64,000 bases of DNA from a virus (IMGVR_UViG_2609460332_000008); one strand, 5' to 3'; shown: positions 8,123 to 64,000, numbered from the stretch's first letter. Numbers and translations are program-made. The notes: generated by a model not told the origin, from the letters alone.

Positions 8123-9396
8123 CAGTCGGTAATCTCCACAGGTTGCGTTGGCAGGATGAATGACGGATGGCGCAGGCGGTTACGCTGCACGATTTCATCC
8201 CGTCGGCTGGTGTCACCATGCTCGCGCCATGCCAGCAATGCGGCAGATGTGGTTGTGGTCAGCGTCACCTGCCGGGTTTCCGGCAGACGGGCGGCACGCT
8301 TGCGGGCATCCGTAATCACGGCCTGCCGTAAATCGCGCAGCGTTCGCCACAATGCCCGCTGGTTATTTTCCACCGCCGCCACCGCCTGCTCATGCAGTTC
8401 AGCCGCCAGCGTGTCACCGGCAGATAACGCCGCATCACTGGTATCGAACGTCATCGAGGCCACGGCATTTGCCTGTCCCAGCAGGGTTTCCAGCACAACC
8501 ACCTGGCGGAAGTCGTCAATGTTCTTCTGCAGGCTGTCAGATACCGGCTGATAATCCGGTGACAGCCCGATAGCAAAGCCAATTTCGCCGTCTGCCACGC
8601 TGCCGGGCTTCACGGTGATATCTTCCGGCAGTGCGCCGGTGGCAACCTGTCGGGCGCGTTCTCCGGCCCACTGGTTGCGTAATGTCGTGTAAACTGCCAG
8701 TGCTTCGGGTGGTTCCGTCACCAGATCAACCACGCCGTCGATGAACGAGGACAACTCACTGACCAGACGCCCCGGCGTGGCAATGATGGTTCCGGCCATC
8801 TCCTTAAAATGGTTCAGCCTGTCCATCCACTGATTCAGTGCCGTCGGTAACGTGGGCAGGTTGGCCACAAGGTTTTCCATATCGGCCAGAAAGCTGTCGG
8901 CCATCTCACCCAGCCCGTCAGGTGCACCGAACCAGTTGCCATCGTCAATGGCCGCTTTTACCGCATCAATGCCCGTCAGCACTTCCTGCTGCGTGTTATC
9001 CGCCGCAGACGGGAACAGACGCTCGCCTGCCTCAAACACTTCAAATGTGACATACGCAATGCCATCTTCCTCCGTGCTGAGGCGATGGGTGACCTTGCCA
9101 ACCTGTACGGTCTGTATCCCGAACCACGGGTGGATAAGCTCACCGGGACCGGGGGTATTAAGCGCGTCTAAAAGGGCGTTTAAATCATCCTGGAAGTTTT
9201 TACCTGGCAGCTTTGCGTTAATCTGCTGTTGCCCCGGAACGGCCCCGTTATCATCCGTCCAGGCAGTTTCGCGCCGGGGATACGCACGGGGAATGGCACG
9301 ACGGCCACCGGTGCCTTCCGTATCCACCAGAAAGAAAGGGACGCCACGAAACGAGGCGTCGCGCAGCCCGTCCCATTTGCCTTTGCTCGTTGTCAT
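8122..9396 (-). CDS. DNA circularisation protein (Mu N/gp43-like)
   Basis: 424 aa immediately after the tape measure gene. Confidence 0.65.
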   Translation of the reverse strand: MTTSKGKWDGLRDASFRGVPFFLVDTEGTGGRRAIPRAYPRRETAWTDDNGAVPGQQQINAKLPGKNFQDDLNALLDALNTPGPGELIHPWFGIQTVQVGKVTHRLSTEEDGIAYVTFEVFEAGERLFPSAADNTQQEVLTGIDAVKAAIDDGNWFGAPDGLGEMADSFLADMENLVANLPTLPTALNQWMDRLNHFKEMAGTIIATPGRLVSELSSFIDGVVDLVTEPPEALAVYTTLRNQWAGERARQVATGALPEDITVKPGSVADGEIGFAIGLSPDYQPVSDSLQKNIDDFRQVVVLETLLGQANAVASMTFDTSDAALSAGDTLAAELHEQAVAAVENNQRALWRTLRDLRQAVITDARKRAARLPETRQVTLTTTTSAALLAWREHGDTSRRDEIVQRNRLRHPSFILPTQPVEITD

Positions 9397-33776: not shown

Positions 33777-33781
33777 CCAGC
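33777..33781. repeat. 5-bp target-site duplication CCAGC, copy at the Mu left end
   Basis: Identical to 202..206. Confidence 0.85.
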
Positions 33782-35333: not shown

Positions 35334-35360
35334 TGGGGAGGGCTTAGCCCTCCCTCTTTT
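35334..35360. terminator. Bidirectional rho-independent terminator between convergent adhesin and esterase genes
   Basis: GGGAGGGC-tta-GCCCTCCC followed by TCTTTTT on the plus strand and a T-rich run on the minus strand. Confidence 0.7.
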
Positions 35361-36403
35361 TACAGGTTAGCGTTTGGGTTTTGTTGTTGGGGAGCTGTTT
35401 TTATAGGCGCTCCCAGGTTTTTAGTAAACCACTCAACGACTCTGTTTATAATAATTGGCTGATACCATGTCTTATCGCCATGCTCGGCCCCTTCTACCAG
35501 CACGTACTCAGCGTTATCACCGTTCTTCTTCAACATCCTGAATAGTTTGGCGCTTTGCTCAGGTGAAACCAGAGTGTCTTTGCTACCATGCATAATAAGA
35601 AATGGGGGTTTTACTCCTTTCATATGTCCGATTGGACTGGCGTTTAGCGCTTTTTCTTTTGACGCTGTGATGGGGGCTCCCGCAAAATTTCTGAATGCAG
35701 GGCCATTGATCATTAAGGCTTCGGTTACGGCAGGAGAGCGATGAACCTCCTGCACTGATTCAGGGAACCCCTCGCCAATATTCAACAAGTCAGAAATCCC
35801 ATAAAGTGTGGCAACTGCCTGAACATCTGAGGATTGCTGAAGAAAGTCACCTTTATCAAAGGTTTTGTCACCATTTGTAGTTCCCATCATCTGGGCAAGC
35901 CATCCACCGGCAGAGTCACCCAGAACTCCGATTCTTTGAGGATCAATCCCATAATTGCTGGCATGCTCTCTCAGGTAACGTATTGCAGCTTTTCCATCCT
36001 CAACTGGTGCTGGAAATGTATCAGGAATTGTTCTGTATTCTACAGCGGCCACAACAAAACCAGCTTCTGCCAGAGCCATTCTCATTTCAATAAATTTGTC
36101 ATGTTCAGAAGACATGAATCCGCCGCCGGGATAATAAATAATGGCTGGTTTTAAATCATTTGTTCGCGGGACAAGAACTGACATGTGAAGCTGTCTGACA
36201 GAACGAGTTCCTTTTATCTGGGAATAAACAACATCACCAATGAGATCGACCTGGTTTCTGGTCGGTGAAACACTAATGATATCTGCACCCGGGGTGTAAC
36301 CAGGAAGATTAGTCTGGACAGGTGTTGCACAACTCCCGACCGACATGGCCATTGACATACCATACAATAGTGTTGCAGATGATAATATCTTGTTAATTTT
36401 CAT
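35360..36403 (-). CDS. Alpha/beta-hydrolase fold esterase/lipase, probable lipoprotein
   Basis: Signal peptide with lipobox ...MSVGSC; oxyanion-hole-like YYPGGGF and nucleophile-elbow GDSAGG motifs. Confidence 0.75.
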   Translation of the reverse strand: MKINKILSSATLLYGMSMAMSVGSCATPVQTNLPGYTPGADIISVSPTRNQVDLIGDVVYSQIKGTRSVRQLHMSVLVPRTNDLKPAIIYYPGGGFMSSEHDKFIEMRMALAEAGFVVAAVEYRTIPDTFPAPVEDGKAAIRYLREHASNYGIDPQRIGVLGDSAGGWLAQMMGTTNGDKTFDKGDFLQQSSDVQAVATLYGISDLLNIGEGFPESVQEVHRSPAVTEALMINGPAFRNFAGAPITASKEKALNASPIGHMKGVKPPFLIMHGSKDTLVSPEQSAKLFRMLKKNGDNAEYVLVEGAEHGDKTWYQPIIINRVVEWFTKNLGAPIKTAPQQQNPNANL

Positions 36404-39148: not shown

Positions 39149-39262
39149 CCAGGCTTGCGGGGAGCATCAACTCCGTGCTTTGTCGTTAAATTACCCCGTG
39201 AGCCTGATTTCTGACATTTAACGTCCCGGCCTTTTGTCGGCGGCGAAACATTGGCTATTCAT

Positions 39263-39568
39263 ATGCACGAAAAAGAGAGCCTTGCCGGAGCGTTCTGGCT
39301 CGTTTTGCTGATCATCGCAGGTTGGGGCGGTCTGGTCCGCTACCTGATAGATGTGAAGCAGAGTAAAGCAACGTGGAGTTGGATAAATGCTCTGGCTCAA
39401 ATAGTGGTATCAGGATTCACCGGTGTTATTGGTGGCCTGATCAGCATCGAAAGTGGATTCAGTATTTACATGATTCTCGCGACAGCGGGGATTAGTGGTG
39501 CGATGGGTTCGGTTGCACTGACGTACTTCTGGGAACGACTGACAGGGGTGAAAAATGCAAAATCTTAA
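39263..39568 (+). CDS. Holin (possible dual-start holin/antiholin)
   Basis: Hydrophobic helices; directly upstream of and overlapping R; upstream in-frame TTG at 39251. Confidence 0.7.
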   Translation: MHEKESLAGAFWLVLLIIAGWGGLVRYLIDVKQSKATWSWINALAQIVVSGFTGVIGGLISIESGFSIYMILATAGISGAMGSVALTYFWERLTGVKNAKS

Positions 39569-40031
39569 TCCTCAGCGTAAAGCCTTCCTCGATATGTTGG
39601 CGTGGTCAGAAGGAACGGATAACGGGCGACAACCGACACGTAACCACGGTTATGATGTTATTGTTGGCGGCGAACTGTTTACTGATTACTCCGATCACCC
39701 TCGCAAACTTGTCACGCTACACCCCAAACTCAAATCAACAGCCGCCGGACGTTATCAGCTTCTTTCACGCTGGTGGGATGCTTACCGTAAACAGCTTGGT
39801 TTGAAAGACTTCTCCCCCAAAAGCCAGGACGCAGTGGCATTACAGCAGATTAAAGAGCGTGGTGCTTTACCGATGATTGATCGCGGTGATATCCGTCAGG
39901 CAATCGACCGTTGCAGCAATATCTGGGCTTCACTGCCGGGCGCTGGTTATGGTCAGTTCGAGCATAAGGCTGACAGCCTGATTGCAAAATTCAAAGAAGC
40001 TGGCGGAACGCTCAGAGAGAGTGAGGTATGA
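39555..40031 (+). CDS. R: Endolysin R (lambda-type lytic transglycosylase)
   Basis: ...[20 protein letters not shown]...[26 protein letters not shown]... near-identical to lambda R as recalled. Confidence 0.9.
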
Positions 40032-40489
40032 GCAGAATAACCGCGATTATCTCCGCTCTGGTTATCTGCGTCATCGTCTGCCTTTCATGGGCGGTTAATC
40101 ATTACCGCGATAACGCGATTACCTACAAAGCCCAGCGCGACAAAAATGCCAGAGAACTGACGCTGGCGAACGCGGCAATTACTGACATACAGATGCGTCA
40201 GCGTGATGTTGCTGCGCTCGATGCAAAATACACGAAGGAGTTAGCTGATGCGAAAGCTGAAAATGATGCTCTGCGTGATGATGTTGCCGCTGGTCGTCGT
40301 CGGTTGCACATCAAAGCAGTCTGTCAGTCAGTGCGTGAAGCCACCACCGCCTCCGGCGTGGATAATGCAGCCTCCCCCCGACTGGCAGACACCGCTGAAC
40401 GGGATTATTTCACCCTCAGAGAGAGGCTGATCACTATGCAAAAACAACTGGAAGGAACCCAGAAGTATATTAATGAGCAGTGCAGATAG
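40028..40489 (+). CDS. Rz: Rz i-spanin
   Basis: N-terminal TM segment plus coiled-coil periplasmic domain; matches lambda Rz. Confidence 0.9.
40248..40430 (+). CDS. Rz1: Rz1 o-spanin lipoprotein embedded in Rz (+1 frame)
   Basis: [60 protein letters not shown] matches lambda Rz1. Confidence 0.9.
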
Positions 40490-40520
40490 AGCTGCCCATA
40501 TCGATGGGCAACTCATGCAA

Positions 40521-40814
40521 TTATTGTGAGCAATACACACGCGCTTCCAGCGGAGTATAAATGCCTAAAGTAATAAAACCGAGCAATCCATTTACGAATG
40601 TTTGCTGGGTTTCTGTTTTAACAACATTTTCTGCACCACCACAAATTTTTGCTGCATCGACAGTTTTCTTCTGCCCAATTCCCGAAACGAAGAAATGATG
40701 GGTGATGGTTTCCTTTGGTGTTACTGCTGTAGGTTTGTTTCCAACAGTAAACGTCTGTTGAGCACATCCTGTAATAAGCATTGCCAGAGCGGCAGAAAAC
40801 AACATTTTTTTCAT
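40521..40814 (-). CDS. bor: Bor serum-resistance lipoprotein
   Basis: MKKMLFSAALAMLITGCAQQTFTV... matches lambda Bor; opposite strand between Rz and cos as in lambda. Confidence 0.9.
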   Translation of the reverse strand: MKKMLFSAALAMLITGCAQQTFTVGNKPTAVTPKETITHHFFVSGIGQKKTVDAAKICGGAENVVKTETQQTFVNGLLGFITLGIYTPLEARVYCSQ

Positions 40815-57856: not shown

Positions 57857-60800
57857 ATGGGTAAAGGCAGCAGTAAGGGGCATACCCCGCGCGAAGCGAA
57901 GGACAACCTGAAGTCCACGCAGCTGCTGAGTGTGATCGATGCCATCAGCGAAGGGCCGGTTGAAGGTCCGGTGGATGGATTAAAAAGCGTGCTGCTGAAC
58001 AGTACGCCGGTGCTGGACAGTGAGGGGAATACCAATATATCCGGCGTCACGGTGGTGTTCCGGGCCGGTGAGCAGGAGCAGTCACCGCCGGAGGGATTTG
58101 AATCCTCCGGCTCCGAGACGGTGCTGGGTACGGAAGTGAAATATGACACGCCGATCACCCGGACCATCACGTCGGCAAACATCGACCGTCTGCGCTTTAC
58201 CTTCGGTGTACAGGCACTGGTGGAAACCACCTCAAAGGGAGACAGGAATCCGTCGGAAGTTCGCCTGCTGGTTCAGATACAGCGTAACGGTGGCTGGGTG
58301 ACGGAAAAAGACATCACCATTAAGGGCAAAACCACCTCGCAGTATCTGGCCTCGGTGGTGGTGGATAACCTGCCGCCGCGCCCGTTTAATATCCGGATGC
58401 GCAGGATGACGCCGGACAGCACCACAGACCAGCTGCTGAACAAAACGCTCTGGTCGTCATACACCGAAATCATCGATGTGAAACAGTGCTACCCGAACAC
58501 GGCACTGGTTGGCGTGCAGGTGGACTCGGAGCAGTTCGGCAGCCAGCAGGTGAGCCGTAATTATCATCTTCGCGGGCGCATTCTGCAGGTGCCGTCGAAC
58601 TATAACCCGCAGACGCGGCAATACAGCGGTATCTGGGACGGAACGTTAAAACCGGCATACAGCAACAACATGGCCTGGTGTCTGTGGGATATGCTGACCC
58701 ATCCGCGCTACGGCATGGGGAAACGTCTTGGTGCGGCGGATGTGGATAAATGGGCGCTGTATGTCATCGGCCAGTACTGCGACCAGTCGGTGCCGGACGG
58801 CTTTGGCGGCACGGAGCCGCGCATTACCTGTAATGCGTACCTGACCACACAGCGCAAGGCGTGGGATGTGCTCAGTGATTTCTGCTCGGCGATGCGCTGT
58901 ATGCCGGTATGGAACGGGCAGACGCTGACGTTCGTGCAGGACCGACCATCAGATAAGGTGTGGACCTATAACCGCAGTAATGTGGTGATGCCGGATGATG
59001 GCGCGCCGTTCCGCTACAGCTTCAGCGCCCTGAAGGACCGCCATAATGCCGTTGAGGTGAACTGGATTGACCCGGATAACGGCTGGGAGACGGCGACAGA
59101 GCTCGTGGAGGATACGCAGGCCATTGCCCGTTACGGCCGTAACGTCACGAAGATGGATGCCTTTGGCTGTACCAGCCGGGGGCAGGCACACCGCGCCGGG
59201 CTGTGGCTGATTAAAACGGAGCTGCTGGAAACGCAGACCGTGGACTTCAGCGTGGGTGCTGAAGGGCTTCGCCATGTACCGGGGGATGTCATTGAAATCT
59301 GCGATGATGACTATGCCGGTATCAGCACCGGTGGTCGTGTGCTGGCGGTGAACAGCCAGACCCGGACGCTGACGCTCGACCGTGAAATCACGCTGCCATC
59401 CTCCGGTACCACGCTGATAAGCCTGGTTGACGGAAGTGGCAATCCGGTCAGCGTGGAGGTTCAGTCCGTCACCGACGGCGTGAAGGTGAAAGTGAGCCGT
59501 GTTCCTGACGGTGTTGCTGAATACAGCGTATGGGGGCTGAAGCTGCCGACGCTGCGCCAGCGACTGTTCCGCTGCGTGAGTATCCGTGAAAACGACGACG
59601 GCACGTATGCCATCACCGCCGTGCAGCATGTGCCGGAAAAAGAGACCATCGTGGATAACGGGGCGCACTTTGACGGCGAACAGAGTGGCACGGTGAATGG
59701 TGTCACGCCGCCCGCGGTGCAGCACCTGACCGCAGAAGTCACCGCAGACAGCGGGGAATATCAGGTGCTGGCGCGATGGGACACACCGAAGGTGGTGAAG
59801 GGGGTGAGCTTTATGCTTCGCCTGACCGTGGCAGCGGATGACGGCAGTGAGCGGCTGGTCAGCACGGCCAGGACGACGGAAACCACATACCGCTTCAGGC
59901 AACTGGCGCTGGGGAACTACAGGCTGACAGTCCGGGCGGTAAATGCGTGGGGGCAGCAGGGGGATCCGGCGTCGGTATCGTTCCGGATTGCCGCACCGGC
60001 AGCGCCATCGCGGATTGAGCTGACGCCGGGCTATTTTCAGATAACCGCAACGCCGCATCTTGCCGTTTATGATCCGACGGTACAGTTTGAGTTCTGGTTC
60101 TCGGAAAAGCGGATTGCGGATATCAGGCAGGTTGAAGCCAGCGCGCGTTATCTTGGTACGGCGCTGTACTGGATAGCCGCCAGTATCAATATCAAACCGG
60201 GCCATGATTATTATTTTTACATTCGCAGTGTGAACACCGTTGGCAAATCGGCATTTGTGGAGGCTGTTGGCCAGCCGAGTGATGATGCATCCGGCTATCT
60301 GGATTTTTTCAAAGGAGAGATAGGGAAAACCCATCTGGCTCAGGAGTTGTGGACGCAGATTGATAACGGTCAGCTTGCGCCTGACCTGGCTGAAATCAGG
60401 ACGTCCATTACGGATGTCAGCAATGAAATCACGCAGACCGTCAATAAGAAACTGGAAGACCAGAGTGCAGCGATCCAGCAGATACAGAAGGTTCAGGTTG
60501 ATACAAATAATAACCTGAACAGCATGTGGGCTGTGAAGCTGCAGCAGATGCAGGACGGACGCCTTTATATCGCGGGTATTGGTGCCGGTATTGAGAATAC
60601 CCCTGACGGTATGCAGAGTCAGGTGCTGCTGGCGGCGGACAGGATTGCGATGATTAATCCTGCGAATGGCAATACAAAGCCGATGTTTGTTGGGCAGGGC
60701 GATCAGATATTCATGAACGAAGTGTTCCTGAAATATCTGACGGCTCCCACCATTACCAGCGGTGGCAATCCCCCAACGTTTTCACTGACACCTGATGGTC

Positions 60801-61339
60801 GACTTTCTGCGAGAAATGCGGATATCAGCGGTAACGTGAATGCGAACTCCGGGACGCTCAATAATGTCACGATTAACCAGAACTGTCGGATTCTGGGAAA
60901 ACTGTCAGCTAACCAGATTGAAGGTGATATTGTCAAAACGGTGGGAAAAGCCTTTCCGAGAAATGGCAGTTATGCCAGCGGTACAATAACGGTCACTGTG
61001 TACGATGACCAGGCTTTTGACCGTCAGATAGTCGTCCCCCCCGTTCTGTTTCGCGGTGGTAAGCATGAAAACTTCAACAGCAACAACCAACAGTCATACT
61101 GGTATTCAACCTGTAAGCTGCAGGTGCTGAAGAACGGACAGGAAATCTTTCAGCAACCCGCGACGGATGTCAGCAGGGTATTTTCATCAGTCATTGATAT
61201 GCCTGCCGGACACGGCCATGTCACCCTGACTTTCAATGTTTCTTCATATGGTGCAAATAACTGGACGCCAACGACCAGTATCAGCGACCTTCTTGTTGTC
61301 GTGATGAAGAAATCAACAGCCGGCATCAGTATCAGTTGA
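57857..61339 (+). CDS. J: Central tail fibre / host-specificity protein J, with divergent C-terminal receptor-binding region
   Basis: 1160 aa; N-terminal ~1000 aa lambda-J-like; last ~150 aa differ from lambda J as I recall it. Confidence 0.85.
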
Positions 61340-61397
61340 ATTTTAAAACCCAAATTCGGGCACCAGAAATGGTGCCTTTTTTATTTGTGGAGTGAAT

Positions 61398-63419
61398 ATG
61401 GCAGTACAGATTTCAGGTGTGCTGAAAGACGGTGCAGGAAAACCGATACAGAACTGCACCATTCAGCTCAAAGCAAAACGTAACAGCACCACAGTTGTGG
61501 TGAACACGGTGGCCTCAGAAAATCCGGATGAAGCCGGACGTTACAGCATGGATGTTGAGTATGGCCAGTACAGCGTCGCCCTGCTGGTTGAAGGTTTTCC
61601 GCCTTCACATGCCGGGACCATCACCGTGTATGAGGATTCTAAGCCGGGGACATTGAATGATTTTCTGGGCGCTGCAACAGAAGATGATGTTTGTCCGGAG
61701 GCACTGTATCGTTTTGAAAAGATGGTGGAAGAGGCGGCACGCAACGCTGAAGCCGCCTCTCAGAGCGCAGCGGCAGCAAAGAAATCAGAAACAGCAGCGG
61801 CATCGTCCAGGAACGCGGCGAAAACATCAGAGACGAATGCAGGTAACAGCGCGAAAGCGGCAGCTTCTTCAAAAACAGCCGCACAAAACGCAGCAACAGC
61901 GGCAGAACGTTCAGAGACAAATGCCCGTGCGTCAGAAGAAGCCTCCGCAGACAGTGAAGAGGCTTCCCGCCGTAATGCAGAGTCAGCCGCTGAAAATGCC
62001 GGAGTCGCCACCACAAAAGCGCGGGAGGCCGCAGCAGACGCAACAAAGGCCGGGCAGAAAAAGGATGAGGCTCTGTCGGCAGCGACACGAGCTGAAAAGG
62101 CGGCAGACCGCGCAGAAGCCGCAGCGGAAGTGACTGCAGAGCCCTGTGCGAATATAGTGCCGCCGCTGCCTGATGTGTGGATACCGTTTAACGATTCACT
62201 GGATATGATTACGGGTTTTTCGCCATCTTATAAAAAGATAGTTATTGGTGACGATGAAATAACAATGCCAGGCGACAAGATTGTTAAGTTTAAACGTGCT
62301 TCAACAGCAACGTATATTAATAAGTCCGGCCAACTCAAGCTTGCTGAAGTTGACGAACCGCGATTTGAGCGCGATGGCTTATTGATTGAAGGACAGAGGA
62401 CAAATTATCTGAGGAACTCAAATAAACCAGACTCATGGACTGTTCATTCCGCACTGAATAAAACATTTGGCACTGATAAACAGGGGTTCAATTATGCCAC
62501 GGTGACACCCACGGAAAGTATAGTGGGAACAACAGGTGGCTATACTGTGCATGGTGTGGTTGCAGCAGACAGATTCCCGCTGGCAAGTGGTGAATGTTTC
62601 ACTTTTTCGTGCCGGGTTAAAGGCGCTAAAGCACGATGCAGGTTAAGAGTTTCAGTTATTATTGGTGGAACAGATACCTTCTCTGCTGACTCTTATCTTG
62701 ATCTGGATACCCGGATCGCAACAGTAAGCGGTAATACATCCCTTATAACAGCCAAAGCTGAACAACAGGGCGAGTGGACCTACTATGAGGCCACTTATAC
62801 AGCTAATACGGACATTGATACCGTTAACTGTGCTTTTTATATGACAAATAAAATAAGTAATGAGACATTCTATGATGACTCAACATTAACCATGACGACG
62901 CCGCAAATTGAACTGGGCAATACGGCATCGTCATTTATTGTAACTACAATGCCAACAACACGCGCAAGTGATGTAGTTACTATCCCATCGCAGAATAACC
63001 TGTCAACACGGCCTTTTACGGTATTGTGCGAAGTAAGCAGGAACTGGAGTACACCGCCCAATGTTGCGCCAAGGATATTTGATGTTGGAGGGCACAGTAT
63101 TGATGATAATTATTTATCGCTGGGGTTTGTTGCAACAGGAAAGATAAGCGCCAACGTAGGAATGGTTCAGCCACAAATTGCCTCAGATGGAGAAAGGTTC
63201 ATTGTGGGTGTGAGAGCTAAATCTGATTTATCAGTAAATGCAATATGCAATGGTAATTATACAACAAACCTTAATGGTAAAATATTTGGAGTTACAGCAA
63301 CATCGTACCGGTTTGGTGGGCAGACCGCAGCAGGAACGCGTCATTTGTTTGGACACATCAGAAATTTCAGAGTCTGGTTTAAAGAATTAAATGACAGGCA
63401 AATCAAGGAGGCAGTATGA
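61398..63419 (+). CDS. stf: Side tail fibre Stf with variant, low-GC C-terminal domain
   Basis: MAVQISGVLKDGAGKPIQNCTIQLKA... lambda Stf N-terminus, Ala/Ser-rich shaft, then a ~420-aa divergent AT-richer distal domain. Confidence 0.8.
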   Translation: MAVQISGVLKDGAGKPIQNCTIQLKAKRNSTTVVVNTVASENPDEAGRYSMDVEYGQYSVALLVEGFPPSHAGTITVYEDSKPGTLNDFLGAATEDDVCPEALYRFEKMVEEAARNAEAASQSAAAAKKSETAAASSRNAAKTSETNAGNSAKAAASSKTAAQNAATAAERSETNARASEEASADSEEASRRNAESAAENAGVATTKAREAAADATKAGQKKDEALSAATRAEKAADRAEAAAEVTAEPCANIVPPLPDVWIPFNDSLDMITGFSPSYKKIVIGDDEITMPGDKIVKFKRASTATYINKSGQLKLAEVDEPRFERDGLLIEGQRTNYLRNSNKPDSWTVHSALNKTFGTDKQGFNYATVTPTESIVGTTGGYTVHGVVAADRFPLASGECFTFSCRVKGAKARCRLRVSVIIGGTDTFSADSYLDLDTRIATVSGNTSLITAKAEQQGEWTYYEATYTANTDIDTVNCAFYMTNKISNETFYDDSTLTMTTPQIELGNTASSFIVTTMPTTRASDVVTIPSQNNLSTRPFTVLCEVSRNWSTPPNVAPRIFDVGGHSIDDNYLSLGFVATGKISANVGMVQPQIASDGERFIVGVRAKSDLSVNAICNGNYTTNLNGKIFGVTATSYRFGGQTAAGTRHLFGHIRNFRVWFKELNDRQIKEAV

Positions 63420-63694
63420 AAGATTTAACTTTGAAATTTCCTGGTAACAGAGAGTTTAAATCCTTCCTGTCATCTCTTGACTGGGAGGAGGATGAAGACC
63501 TCCAGAATAAACTGTTAGTCGATGAAATTGGTTTCACCTACACAGAAACAGGGGTAACAGAAGAGGGAGAACCTGTCTGTGTCCGGAATGACGGTTATTT
63601 TGTCAACATTCGCATTCTTGATGACTTGTTTGATGTTTCTGTATTCTCTGATTATGTCGTGGAGCTGGAAACACCGCTTCGGGAATGGAGCTGA
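63416..63694 (+). CDS. Acidic 92-aa protein coupled to stf; possible fibre chaperone or accessory
   Basis: ATG overlaps the stf stop (ATGA); not Tfa-like. Confidence 0.45.
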   Translation: MKDLTLKFPGNREFKSFLSSLDWEEDEDLQNKLLVDEIGFTYTETGVTEEGEPVCVRNDGYFVNIRILDDLFDVSVFSDYVVELETPLREWS

Positions 63695-63706
63695 AAGGAG
63701 GAAATA

Positions 63707-64000
63707 ATGGATATAAGCCCCTTACTTCATGCACTTTGTGCTGTGGCTGCGCAGATACTGGTTGGTCTTTTTACCGGAAACTGGGCTTACGGAGCGATAG
63801 CCGGTTGTACGTTCTTCATTGCGCGTGAACATACCCAGGCAGAATATCGCTGGATTGAAATGTTCGGGCATGGCAAGCGAATGAATATGCCGTGGTGGGG
63901 CGGTTTTGATCCGCGAGCTTGGGATGTGGCAAGCCTGATGGATTTTGCTGTGCCGGTGGTGGCGTGTCTGCTGGTCTGGCTGTTGGTTAATCGTGGGTGA
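63707..64000 (+). CDS. Membrane protein, truncated by the window end
   Basis: AGGAGG RBS; hydrophobic helices at both ends of the visible 97 aa; no stop within the window. Confidence 0.45.
   Translation: MDISPLLHALCAVAAQILVGLFTGNWAYGAIAGCTFFIAREHTQAEYRWIEMFGHGKRMNMPWWGGFDPRAWDVASLMDFAVPVVACLLVWLLVNRG

Follow-up and report, generated by a model that had tools for sequence, protein, structure and literature searches.

The host-recognition end of a phage-21-like prophage: a fibre tip shared with virulent phages, its probable small companion, and a conserved membrane protein gene alongside

Two described systems lie closest to the locus considered here. In phage lambda the late operon ends with J-lom-stf-tfa, the last of these genes encoding a Tfa-type (Caudo_TAP) chaperone. 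In phage 21, whose genome record is OL657228 (PMC9119081), the genes CPT_21_21 to CPT_21_24 are annotated as central tail fibre, side tail fibre, hypothetical protein and putative membrane protein; there is no lom, and sitDCBA and a fragment of icd follow. We analysed a stretch of viral DNA of 64,000 nucleotides (nt), IMGVR_UViG_2609460332_000008, called the window below, which ends with the same four genes in the same order: J, stf and two genes for small proteins of 92 and 97 amino acids (aa). In our opinion positions 57857-64000 are probably the distal late-operon end of a phage-21-like lambdoid prophage integrated at icd, made up of three separable units, and this estimate takes in the functions that we propose for the units as well as their structure. 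As sequence and annotation the region is already known, being the phage-21 host-recognition end, the same as in deposited phages. A preliminary description of the window, made from its sequence alone, had read the region as a swapped host-range cassette. Relative to lambda, the distal part of J, the missing lom, the tip of the side tail fibre Stf and the missing Tfa do all differ, but there was no fresh swap, since this is the standard phage-21 arrangement and it is 100% identical in many phages and genomes.

The extent of that identity is easy to illustrate. Over positions 60850-64000 the temperate coliphage 1H12 and those of the Lambda_ev series match the window at 100% identity, and PhiR47_2 does so at 99.8% (our literature search turned up no publication on the ECOR PhiR phages). 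The same query is covered to at least 80% in 511 complete Escherichia coli genomes, and 464 E. coli records, O25b:H4 and JJ1887-type strains included, match the allele at 99% identity or more. With lambda the window shares J up to aa 806, the Pfam family at the C-terminus of J, the N-terminal domain of Stf and the position at the end of the late operon; lambda, however, has an unrelated Stf tip in addition to lom and its chaperone, and the window instead carries the 92-aa protein of an uncharacterised family. It had been recommended that the window be extended, and annotated relatives serve that purpose well: they contain the full 97-aa gene, then sitDCBA in convergent orientation (phage 21, JJ1887 and PhiR47_2), a few small genes, and the icd fragment with the attachment site about 6 kb further on (phage 21 and JJ1887).

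Table 1. Features of the distal late-operon end, in nucleotide positions of the window (GC, guanine plus cytosine content)
Feature	Position	Strand	Remarks
J	57857..61339	+	1160 aa; tail tip attachment protein
J residues 1-806, lambda-like part	57857..60274	+	~98% identity to lambda J; GC 58.9%
J residues 807-1160, phage-21-type distal part including the C-terminal receptor-binding domain	60275..61339	+	GC 49.1%
Terminator-like hairpin with T-run between J and stf	61358..61377	+	terminator scan
stf	61398..63419	+	673 aa; ATG start matches phage annotations
Stf residues 1-254, N-terminal tail-attachment domain and Ala/Ser/Glu-rich rod	61398..62159	+	GC 55.2%
Stf residues 255-673, low-GC distal fibre-tip module	62160..63419	+	GC 42.9%
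Sub-parts of the Stf tip			conserved neck; GTA-head-spike-like domain (~aa 329-523); LamG-like end (~aa 524-670)
Gene for the 92-aa acidic protein, probable fibre-tip companion	63416..63694	+	ATGA overlap with stf; GC 41.9%
Gene for the 97-aa membrane protein (three helices in the model), separate accessory gene	63707..64000	+	complete; GC 52.7%

The locus is laid out in Table 1. That lom is missing was noticed from the start, and indeed J is followed by a 58-nt gap holding the hairpin, and then by stf; the phage 21 record has a terminator annotated at the equivalent position. Against a background GC of 53.5% (window 1-57856), the distal part of Stf and both small genes had all been described as AT-rich. 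This holds for Stf residues 255-673 and for the 92-aa gene but not for the 97-aa gene, so that, by the GC values of the segments, the low-GC block consists of the Stf tip and the 92-aa gene without the 97-aa gene.

The divergence of J from lambda is real, though it is not confined to the last 150 residues, as had been thought. The proteins are about 98% identical to about aa 806, where a 28-aa insertion and divergence set in and the GC falls; some 350 residues are concerned, and the last ~140 aa are about 45% identical to lambda J. The whole protein is nevertheless a J: the NCBIfam model lambda_TipJ (NF049904) covers residues 1-1160 with 2387.7 bits against a cut-off of 1950, and Pfam Ig_GpJ_C (PF12421) matches aa 1038-1160 with 129 bits against 26.2. 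In the distal part 356 of 360 residues (99%) are identical to phage 21 J. The native receptor of Phi21 is LamB, and it acquired OmpC and OmpF as receptors through J mutations alone (PMC11336670; bioRxiv 10.1101/2023.04.13.536812). Because of the 99% identity, the central fibre of the prophage most probably uses LamB as well, despite its divergence from lambda. Thus the divergent end of J, over its last ~350 residues, is a known allele, that of phage 21, and its receptor is most probably the same as lambda's.

Stf is a composite protein. Its N-terminus is of the lambda type: Pfam phage_tail_N (PF08400) matches aa 1-131 with 225.3 bits (E=2.8e-67), and nt 61381-61747 are 84% identical to lambda stf, the nucleotide similarity ending at 61747. 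This part would anchor an unbranched side fibre to the tail. From about aa 255 (PPLPDVWIPFNDSLDM...) a distinct unit runs to the C-terminus, and along its whole length this unit can be aligned, at 41-47% identity, with the distal parts of the lateral fibres of five other phages: IrisVonRoten (T5-like), PeterMerian (Drexlerviridae), JenP1 (Nonagvirus), KarlBarth (Dhillonvirus) and the lambdoid 2G7b. As judged by these alignments, the distal ~420 residues of Stf are a horizontally mobile fibre-tip module that also occurs in virulent T5-like, T1-like, Nonagvirus and Dhillonvirus phages. The virulent siphoviruses concerned (IrisVonRoten/Bas32, SIA3lw, PeterMerian, JenP1 and KarlBarth) carry, together with the ~420-aa tip, an overlapping gene for a homologue of the small protein, of 85-92 aa. 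They differ from the window in their N-terminal anchors, in a further fibre gene past the small gene, usually of the S74 type, and in having no 97-aa gene at that position; nor was a 97-aa gene found elsewhere in their fibre loci.

Domain searches on the tip, which had been proposed as a check, gave one match above its cut-off and one below. The NCBIfam model GTA_spike_fiber (NF048003) matches Stf aa 329-523 with 65.7 bits, where the cut-off is 36 (E=7.5e-18). When a profile of seven tips was compared with the Protein Data Bank (PDB), it found the head spike fibre Rcc01080 of the gene transfer agent (GTA) RcGTA, entry 6TB9, chain 6TB9_F3, over about 240 residues at E=7e-14; PDB searches with the single sequences of the Stf tip, the 92-aa protein and the 97-aa protein gave no match. 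Rcc01080 (6TB9/6TBA/6TSU) decorates the head of a gene transfer agent and lacks the LamG-like end, the rod and a 92-aa partner. Work by Westbye and colleagues in 2016 is said to have found that the RcGTA head spikes bind capsular polysaccharide.

It is the tip in which the window departs from phage 21. The two Stf proteins are near-identical over aa 1 to ~340 and over the last ~30 aa, and 26-46% identical between (aa ~340-640, nt 62408-63307), after which nt 63308-64000 are 94% identical. The window's exact Stf allele is carried by 1H12 and the Lambda_ev series. Its middle domain is 23-29% identical to all six other alleles compared, and for this reason we regard it as a distinct specificity allele. 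Over the tip as a whole (62148-63416, seven loci) the three sub-regions recombine independently, which makes it a mosaic: between phage 21 and 2G7b the identity is 93% for the middle domain but 49% for the LamG-like part, while for IrisVonRoten and PeterMerian the same two figures are 28% and 84%.

What does this tip bind? O-antigen is regarded as the ligand of related lateral fibres (PMC8594841). IrisVonRoten passes the O16 O-antigen, which is credited to its lateral fibres (PMC8594841, PMC11990801), and the Stf of lambda itself allows Ur-lambda to get past unmodified O16 (PMC11990801). In an atlas of phage fibres, those of siphoviruses have coiled-coil rods and lectin-like beta-sandwich heads (PMC12143355). 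By analogy with these fibres, and given the domain homology, the Stf tip probably binds a surface glycan; with its neck, RcGTA-like beta-sandwich and LamG-like end it would make the first, reversible contact with O-antigen or lipopolysaccharide. The Laminin_G_3 family (PF13385) is found in 5 of 7 tip homologues at E<=0.5, the best at E=2.2e-5, which favours such a view. Two points weigh against it. On the last ~150 residues of the window's Stf the family reaches 20.3 bits, below the cut-off of 27.6. Further, lambda Stf has been assigned both OmpC and the O16 O-antigen (PMC11990801), so a protein receptor for Stf is possible too.

Some records of stf deserve a remark. In JJ1887 (NZ_CP014316.1; locus 8549-10570, equivalent to window 61398-63419) the RefSeq/PGAP annotation splits the gene into two 'incomplete' pseudogenes, labelled tail fibre N-terminal domain and head spike fibre domain. 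This pseudogene call looks like an annotation artefact, because the reading frame of 673 codons is uninterrupted and identical in plaque-forming phages. In relatives of the prophage stf can be truly interrupted: Lambda_4B5 carries IS4 and three E. coli chromosomes carry ISEc52 within it, and in phage 4A7 mobile-element genes stand between a 642-aa stf reading frame and the 92-aa gene. These interruptions agree with a side fibre that is not needed under every condition.

We now turn to the small gene that overlaps stf. The preliminary description was right that the two genes are coupled, by an ATGA overlap with an AAGGAGG Shine-Dalgarno sequence, and that the product is acidic (isoelectric point 4.05; 22 aspartates plus glutamates against 8 lysines plus arginines). 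It was also right that the protein is not Tfa-like: it matched zero Pfam families, hence no Tfa family, and at E<=0.1 no Pfam or NCBIfam model was found. Nor do the annotations place a tfa between stf and the attachment site of phage 21, or between stf and the end of the JJ1887 prophage. The protein belongs to PHROG 1361 (E=1.6e-39, residues 1-91 of 92), a family to which no function is assigned. A translated search found homologues in 144 phage records, and in 144 of 144 the homologue lies at a tail fibre gene; in the loci that we opened, the fibre gene encodes the same type of tip and its 3' end overlaps the homologue. Across unrelated phage families the identity is 47-55%, and it is 93% to phage 21. 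The gene is intact in both the window and phage 21, and the ratio of non-synonymous to synonymous substitution rates (dN/dS) between the two is 0.41. Over seven loci the identity of the 92-aa protein correlates with that of the three tip sub-domains at r = 0.02, -0.13 and -0.35, that is, not positively with any. The comparison singles out no contact domain and gives no support to co-evolution. Because the identity follows no variable sub-domain, the protein probably contacts conserved parts of the tip. As a minor point, all six differences between the window and phage 21 copies are in residues 9-16 (63440-63463), PGNREFKS against HDKLQFKA, which in the structure model form a loop and the start of helix 1.

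The last gene of the window had been taken for a membrane protein gene cut by the window end. The former is borne out by an AlphaFold2 model, which has three helices; the latter is not so. The gene is complete, since its stop codon is the final three bases of the window; it is an open reading frame (ORF) of 97 codons, of equal length in phage 21 and JJ1887, starting 12 nt past the 92-aa gene with an AAGGAGG Shine-Dalgarno sequence of its own. The product, which is 100% identical to the phage 21 copy, belongs to PHROG 1443, again a family lacking an assigned function. In the model (mean confidence score, pLDDT, 90.9) the helices span residues 4-23, 26-53 and 74-96 and are mostly hydrophobic; a lipobox is not apparent in the sequence. 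The protein shares 57-93% identity with 26 homologues, which come from Escherichia, Salmonella, Leclercia, Citrobacter, Aeromonas and Comamonas. Among these, 27 columns are invariant, including REHTQAEYRWI...MPWWGGFD and H8, Q16, C34, E41, E46, D68, D79 and C87, and several of the invariant polar residues fall within the modelled helices. An exhaustive profile search collected 430 clusters at 50% identity. The best 150 of these are all 58-146 aa long, so that no domain fusion is seen among them.

The neighbours of the family are instructive. The IMG/VR scan returned only near-identical E. coli prophages, and for diversity a species-level genome scan, with one genome per species, was used instead; as upstream neighbours we counted only the nearest co-oriented ORFs of at least 150 aa, which gives a tally for the family and not classes for each locus, and ORF calling is noisy in GC-rich loci. 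In phages and prophages the homologue follows an S74 second fibre gene (lambdoid phage 2G7b), a tail fibre gene that it overlaps (P2/HP1-like prophages of Leclercia and Aeromonas), a pectate-lyase spike gene (a lambdoid prophage of Citrobacter), a gene for a giant J-like protein (Comamonas) or a tail fibre assembly gene, Tfa (Halomonas phage phiHAP-1). In the P22-like phage Gally it follows the tailspike gene in the lysogenic-conversion position before int, with a terminator between and a weak promoter-like site ahead of it. On a 160-kb contig of a Salmonella assembly, which we take to be a Kuttervirus-like, virulent phage, it stands between two tailspike genes. Other members are plainly chromosomal and have apparently conserved neighbours; apart from those of Aeromonas, the loci are mostly from metagenome-assembled genomes of sphingomonads or alphaproteobacteria. 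They follow pirin in Aeromonas, where the locus that we inspected has no phage genes nearby, and the gene for NAD-dependent DNA ligase (ligA) in three genomes, which are probably sphingomonads; genes for DAHP synthase and PNPase were also seen upstream. As the Comamonas homologue precedes several small genes, we considered that the protein could be a holin. This was rejected, because the gene is away from the lysis cassette and the protein has no charged C-terminal tail (it ends ...LLVNRG); by the JJ1887 annotation the lysis genes lie about 24 kb upstream, at window ~39262-40488.

One could doubt whether the end of the block is phage DNA at all. If the low-GC segment were a recent, strain-specific insertion and the window end the prophage boundary, the last gene would be the host's; the drop in GC points that way, and so does the point, 3 nt past the gene, at which the window stops together with many prophage calls of IMG/VR. 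We give this next to no credence, and it is refuted by the records of phage 21, JJ1887 and PhiR47_2. The same gene order, followed by sitDCBA, is present in virion-derived phage 21 (a 1950s isolate), in 1H12 and in PhiR47_2; further on, phage 21 and JJ1887 reach the icd fragment with its attachment site, and hundreds of E. coli records share the allele, as mentioned above. Because it is present in these three phages upstream of sitDCBA and attP, the 97-aa gene is phage-borne. The scenario in which it is a conserved host gene beyond the prophage, and the 92-aa protein a member of a known fibre assembly family, fails on the second count also, since no known fibre assembly family includes the 92-aa protein. 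For that protein, which is probably a fibre accessory, chaperone or adaptor, of this type of tip, we put a role in assembling the lectin-tipped fibre first, as most likely, and a branching adaptor second. In the model that we prefer it would be a co-translated, dedicated tip accessory and an assembly factor in place of Tfa. Alternatively, it could be a structural adaptor by which the LamG-tipped fibre receives a second fibre of the S74 type, in phages having one, so that a branched fibre results. In all five other loci examined the gene after the 92-aa homologue opens with the motif MVTKTVIPxDITxLKN, and in four of them it encodes a Peptidase_S74 fibre (KarlBarth has a 98-aa motif protein and then a Phage_tail_C_2 protein). 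These second-fibre genes share the N-terminus MxTxTxIPxDIxxLK while the remainder of each protein is unrelated, and the motif has the look of a peptide that docks onto a conserved partner. The adaptor is also consistent with the independence of the 92-aa protein from the variable tip domains, with the finding of both large fibre proteins in the virion of SIA3lw, which carries a 92-aa homologue (PMC12752171), and with the branched fibres of DT57C, in which LtfB attaches through LtfA (PMC4728585). The SIA3lw gel, covering 19-132 kDa, is uninformative on a protein of 10.7 kDa (PMC12752171). The parallel with DT57C has its limits as well: LtfA ends in an S74 autocleaving chaperone domain, whereas S74 is on the second fibre in the window's relatives, and the window's Stf has neither S74 nor an LtfB; the DT57C papers describe no small gene between the fibre genes. 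The window and phage 21 have no second fibre gene, the 97-aa gene following instead, and for this lineage one would have to suppose that the second fibre was lost and the adaptor left over or retained as a cap. All in all we consider the adaptor doubtful, and return to the assembly factor as our preferred reading.

The 97-aa protein invites more than one reading too. It had been suggested as a candidate exclusion or immunity factor, and in its strict form this would mean an exclusion protein matched to the cassette that blocks the receptor of its own fibre, like Cor or Llp. The position right after receptor-binding genes, which in phi80-type phages is occupied by cor, the spacing of 12 nt from the 92-aa gene and the repeated adjacency of phage copies to receptor-binding genes all speak for it. 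We disagree, and find this very unlikely: the protein keeps its 57-93% identity while its neighbour changes from a P22-like tailspike to a pectate-lyase spike, an S74 fibre or a LamG-tipped fibre, and, being conserved beside unrelated receptor-binding proteins, it shows no co-variation with receptor specificity. The GC of its gene is unlike that of the tip, its model reads as an inner-membrane protein and not an outer-membrane lipoprotein, and chromosomal copies are found away from any phage gene. Another reading is a general superinfection-exclusion gene, a moron whose product blocks genome entry or another membrane step whatever the receptor. T4 Imm and P22 SieA are small inner-membrane exclusion proteins, and like HK97 gp15 they are small phage membrane proteins encoded among or after tail genes, as is the 97-aa protein. 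The precedent of HK97 gp15, a small inner-membrane exclusion protein within the tail operon, is given by references 15 and 16 as cited in PMC11364771. No sequence or fold relation between these three and the 97-aa protein was detected, and the 97-aa family, in distinction to them, has non-phage chromosomal members. In favour of general exclusion one can add that the protein is a small membrane protein found mostly in temperate phages and that the Gally copy lies past the late terminator in a lysogenic-conversion position. Much weighs against it, however. PADLOC, a defence library, has zero matches for the 97-aa protein, as for Stf and the 92-aa protein (and a paper on the Tai defence proved unrelated to the family); no promoter or terminator of its own is predicted around the gene in the window or around the JJ1887 copy, the promoter and terminator scans around the small genes giving counts at chance level. 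Copies also lie inside late tail operons, overlapping a fibre gene, and between the tailspikes of the 160-kb contig, which we take to be from a virulent phage. The very high conservation and the invariant polar motif are unusual for proteins in an arms race, and the chromosomal orthologues with conserved synteny, in Aeromonas and probably sphingomonads, suggest a cellular role that may be unrelated to phage exclusion. We rate general exclusion as rather unlikely.

The same observations can be turned round. The protein may be a cell-derived membrane protein with a housekeeping or envelope role, which hitch-hikes at the edge of the cassette or helps the lysogen in some other way. The chromosomal copies beside pirin and ligA, the 27 invariant columns, several of them in modelled helices, and the lengths of the best 150 relatives, which leave no room for a fused domain, are in keeping with this; one might even speculate about a ligand- or metal-binding site. 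The location agrees too, as the gene belongs to the right, conserved flank (63308-64000) next to the variable Stf segment, and because it lies at that flank the data suggest that it also travels with fibre cassettes by recombination. We consider this reading possible but less likely than not. In the model that we propose, the 97-aa gene would stand outside the fibre cassette and be read from the late transcript by means of its own Shine-Dalgarno sequence; by our best guess its product works, whatever the receptor, in the cytoplasmic membrane of a cell that is infected or lysogenic, one candidate role being a general block to incoming DNA as by HK97 gp15 or T4 Imm. It is tempting to generalise for both small families, and we do so with little confidence: PHROG 1361 could be a new accessory class, chaperone or branching adaptor, for lectin-tipped fibres of lambdoid phages and four groups of virulent siphoviruses, and PHROG 1443 could exert a receptor-independent effect on the membrane, for instance genome exclusion or a change in the synthesis of envelope glycans, while travelling with cassettes in lambdoid, P22-like, P2/HP1-like and multi-tailspike phages.

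Why should this locus receive attention, if its sequence is already in the databases? In our opinion its value is as a pointer to two conserved small genes beside a fibre. The prophage end is unchanged in sequenced phages and in about one tenth of complete E. coli genomes, with O25b:H4/JJ1887-type strains of the ST131 lineage among the best matches; human E. coli very often carry this prophage family, and phage 21, on which an experimental community is active, offers a tractable model. Fibre engineering in lambda and in T5-like and T1-like phages would be helped if it were clear whether a lectin-tipped fibre requires the 92-aa protein for its construction. The function of the 97-aa protein, once known, would show whether a common prophage alters the susceptibility or the envelope of its host.

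A few observations concern the rest of the prophage. The end point shared by the IMG/VR predictions and the window is likely a systematic artefact of boundary calling by which the sit cargo is lost; the real prophage has about 6 kb more, which include sitDCBA and lead up to the icd fragment with the attachment site. By the JJ1887 annotation it carries among its accessory genes an alpha/beta hydrolase gene (window ~35359-36402) and, after the lysis genes, iss, encoding a bor-like serum-survival lipoprotein (~40520-40813). Nested in the phage-21-like prophage is a second one, a Mu-like transposable prophage of 33,570 bp at window 207-33776, flanked by the target duplication CCAGC at 202-206 and 33777-33781. 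It splits an accessory gene of 4.3 kb for an inverse autotransporter, which is intact in JJ1887. We take its ends, TGAAGCGGCGCACGAAAAACGCG... and ...CGTACTTCTCGTGAATCAATACA, to be of the Mu type. A search with its first 12 kb left most of that part without a close match in the phage collection, and its com/mom end shares about 89% identity with Mu and SfMu.

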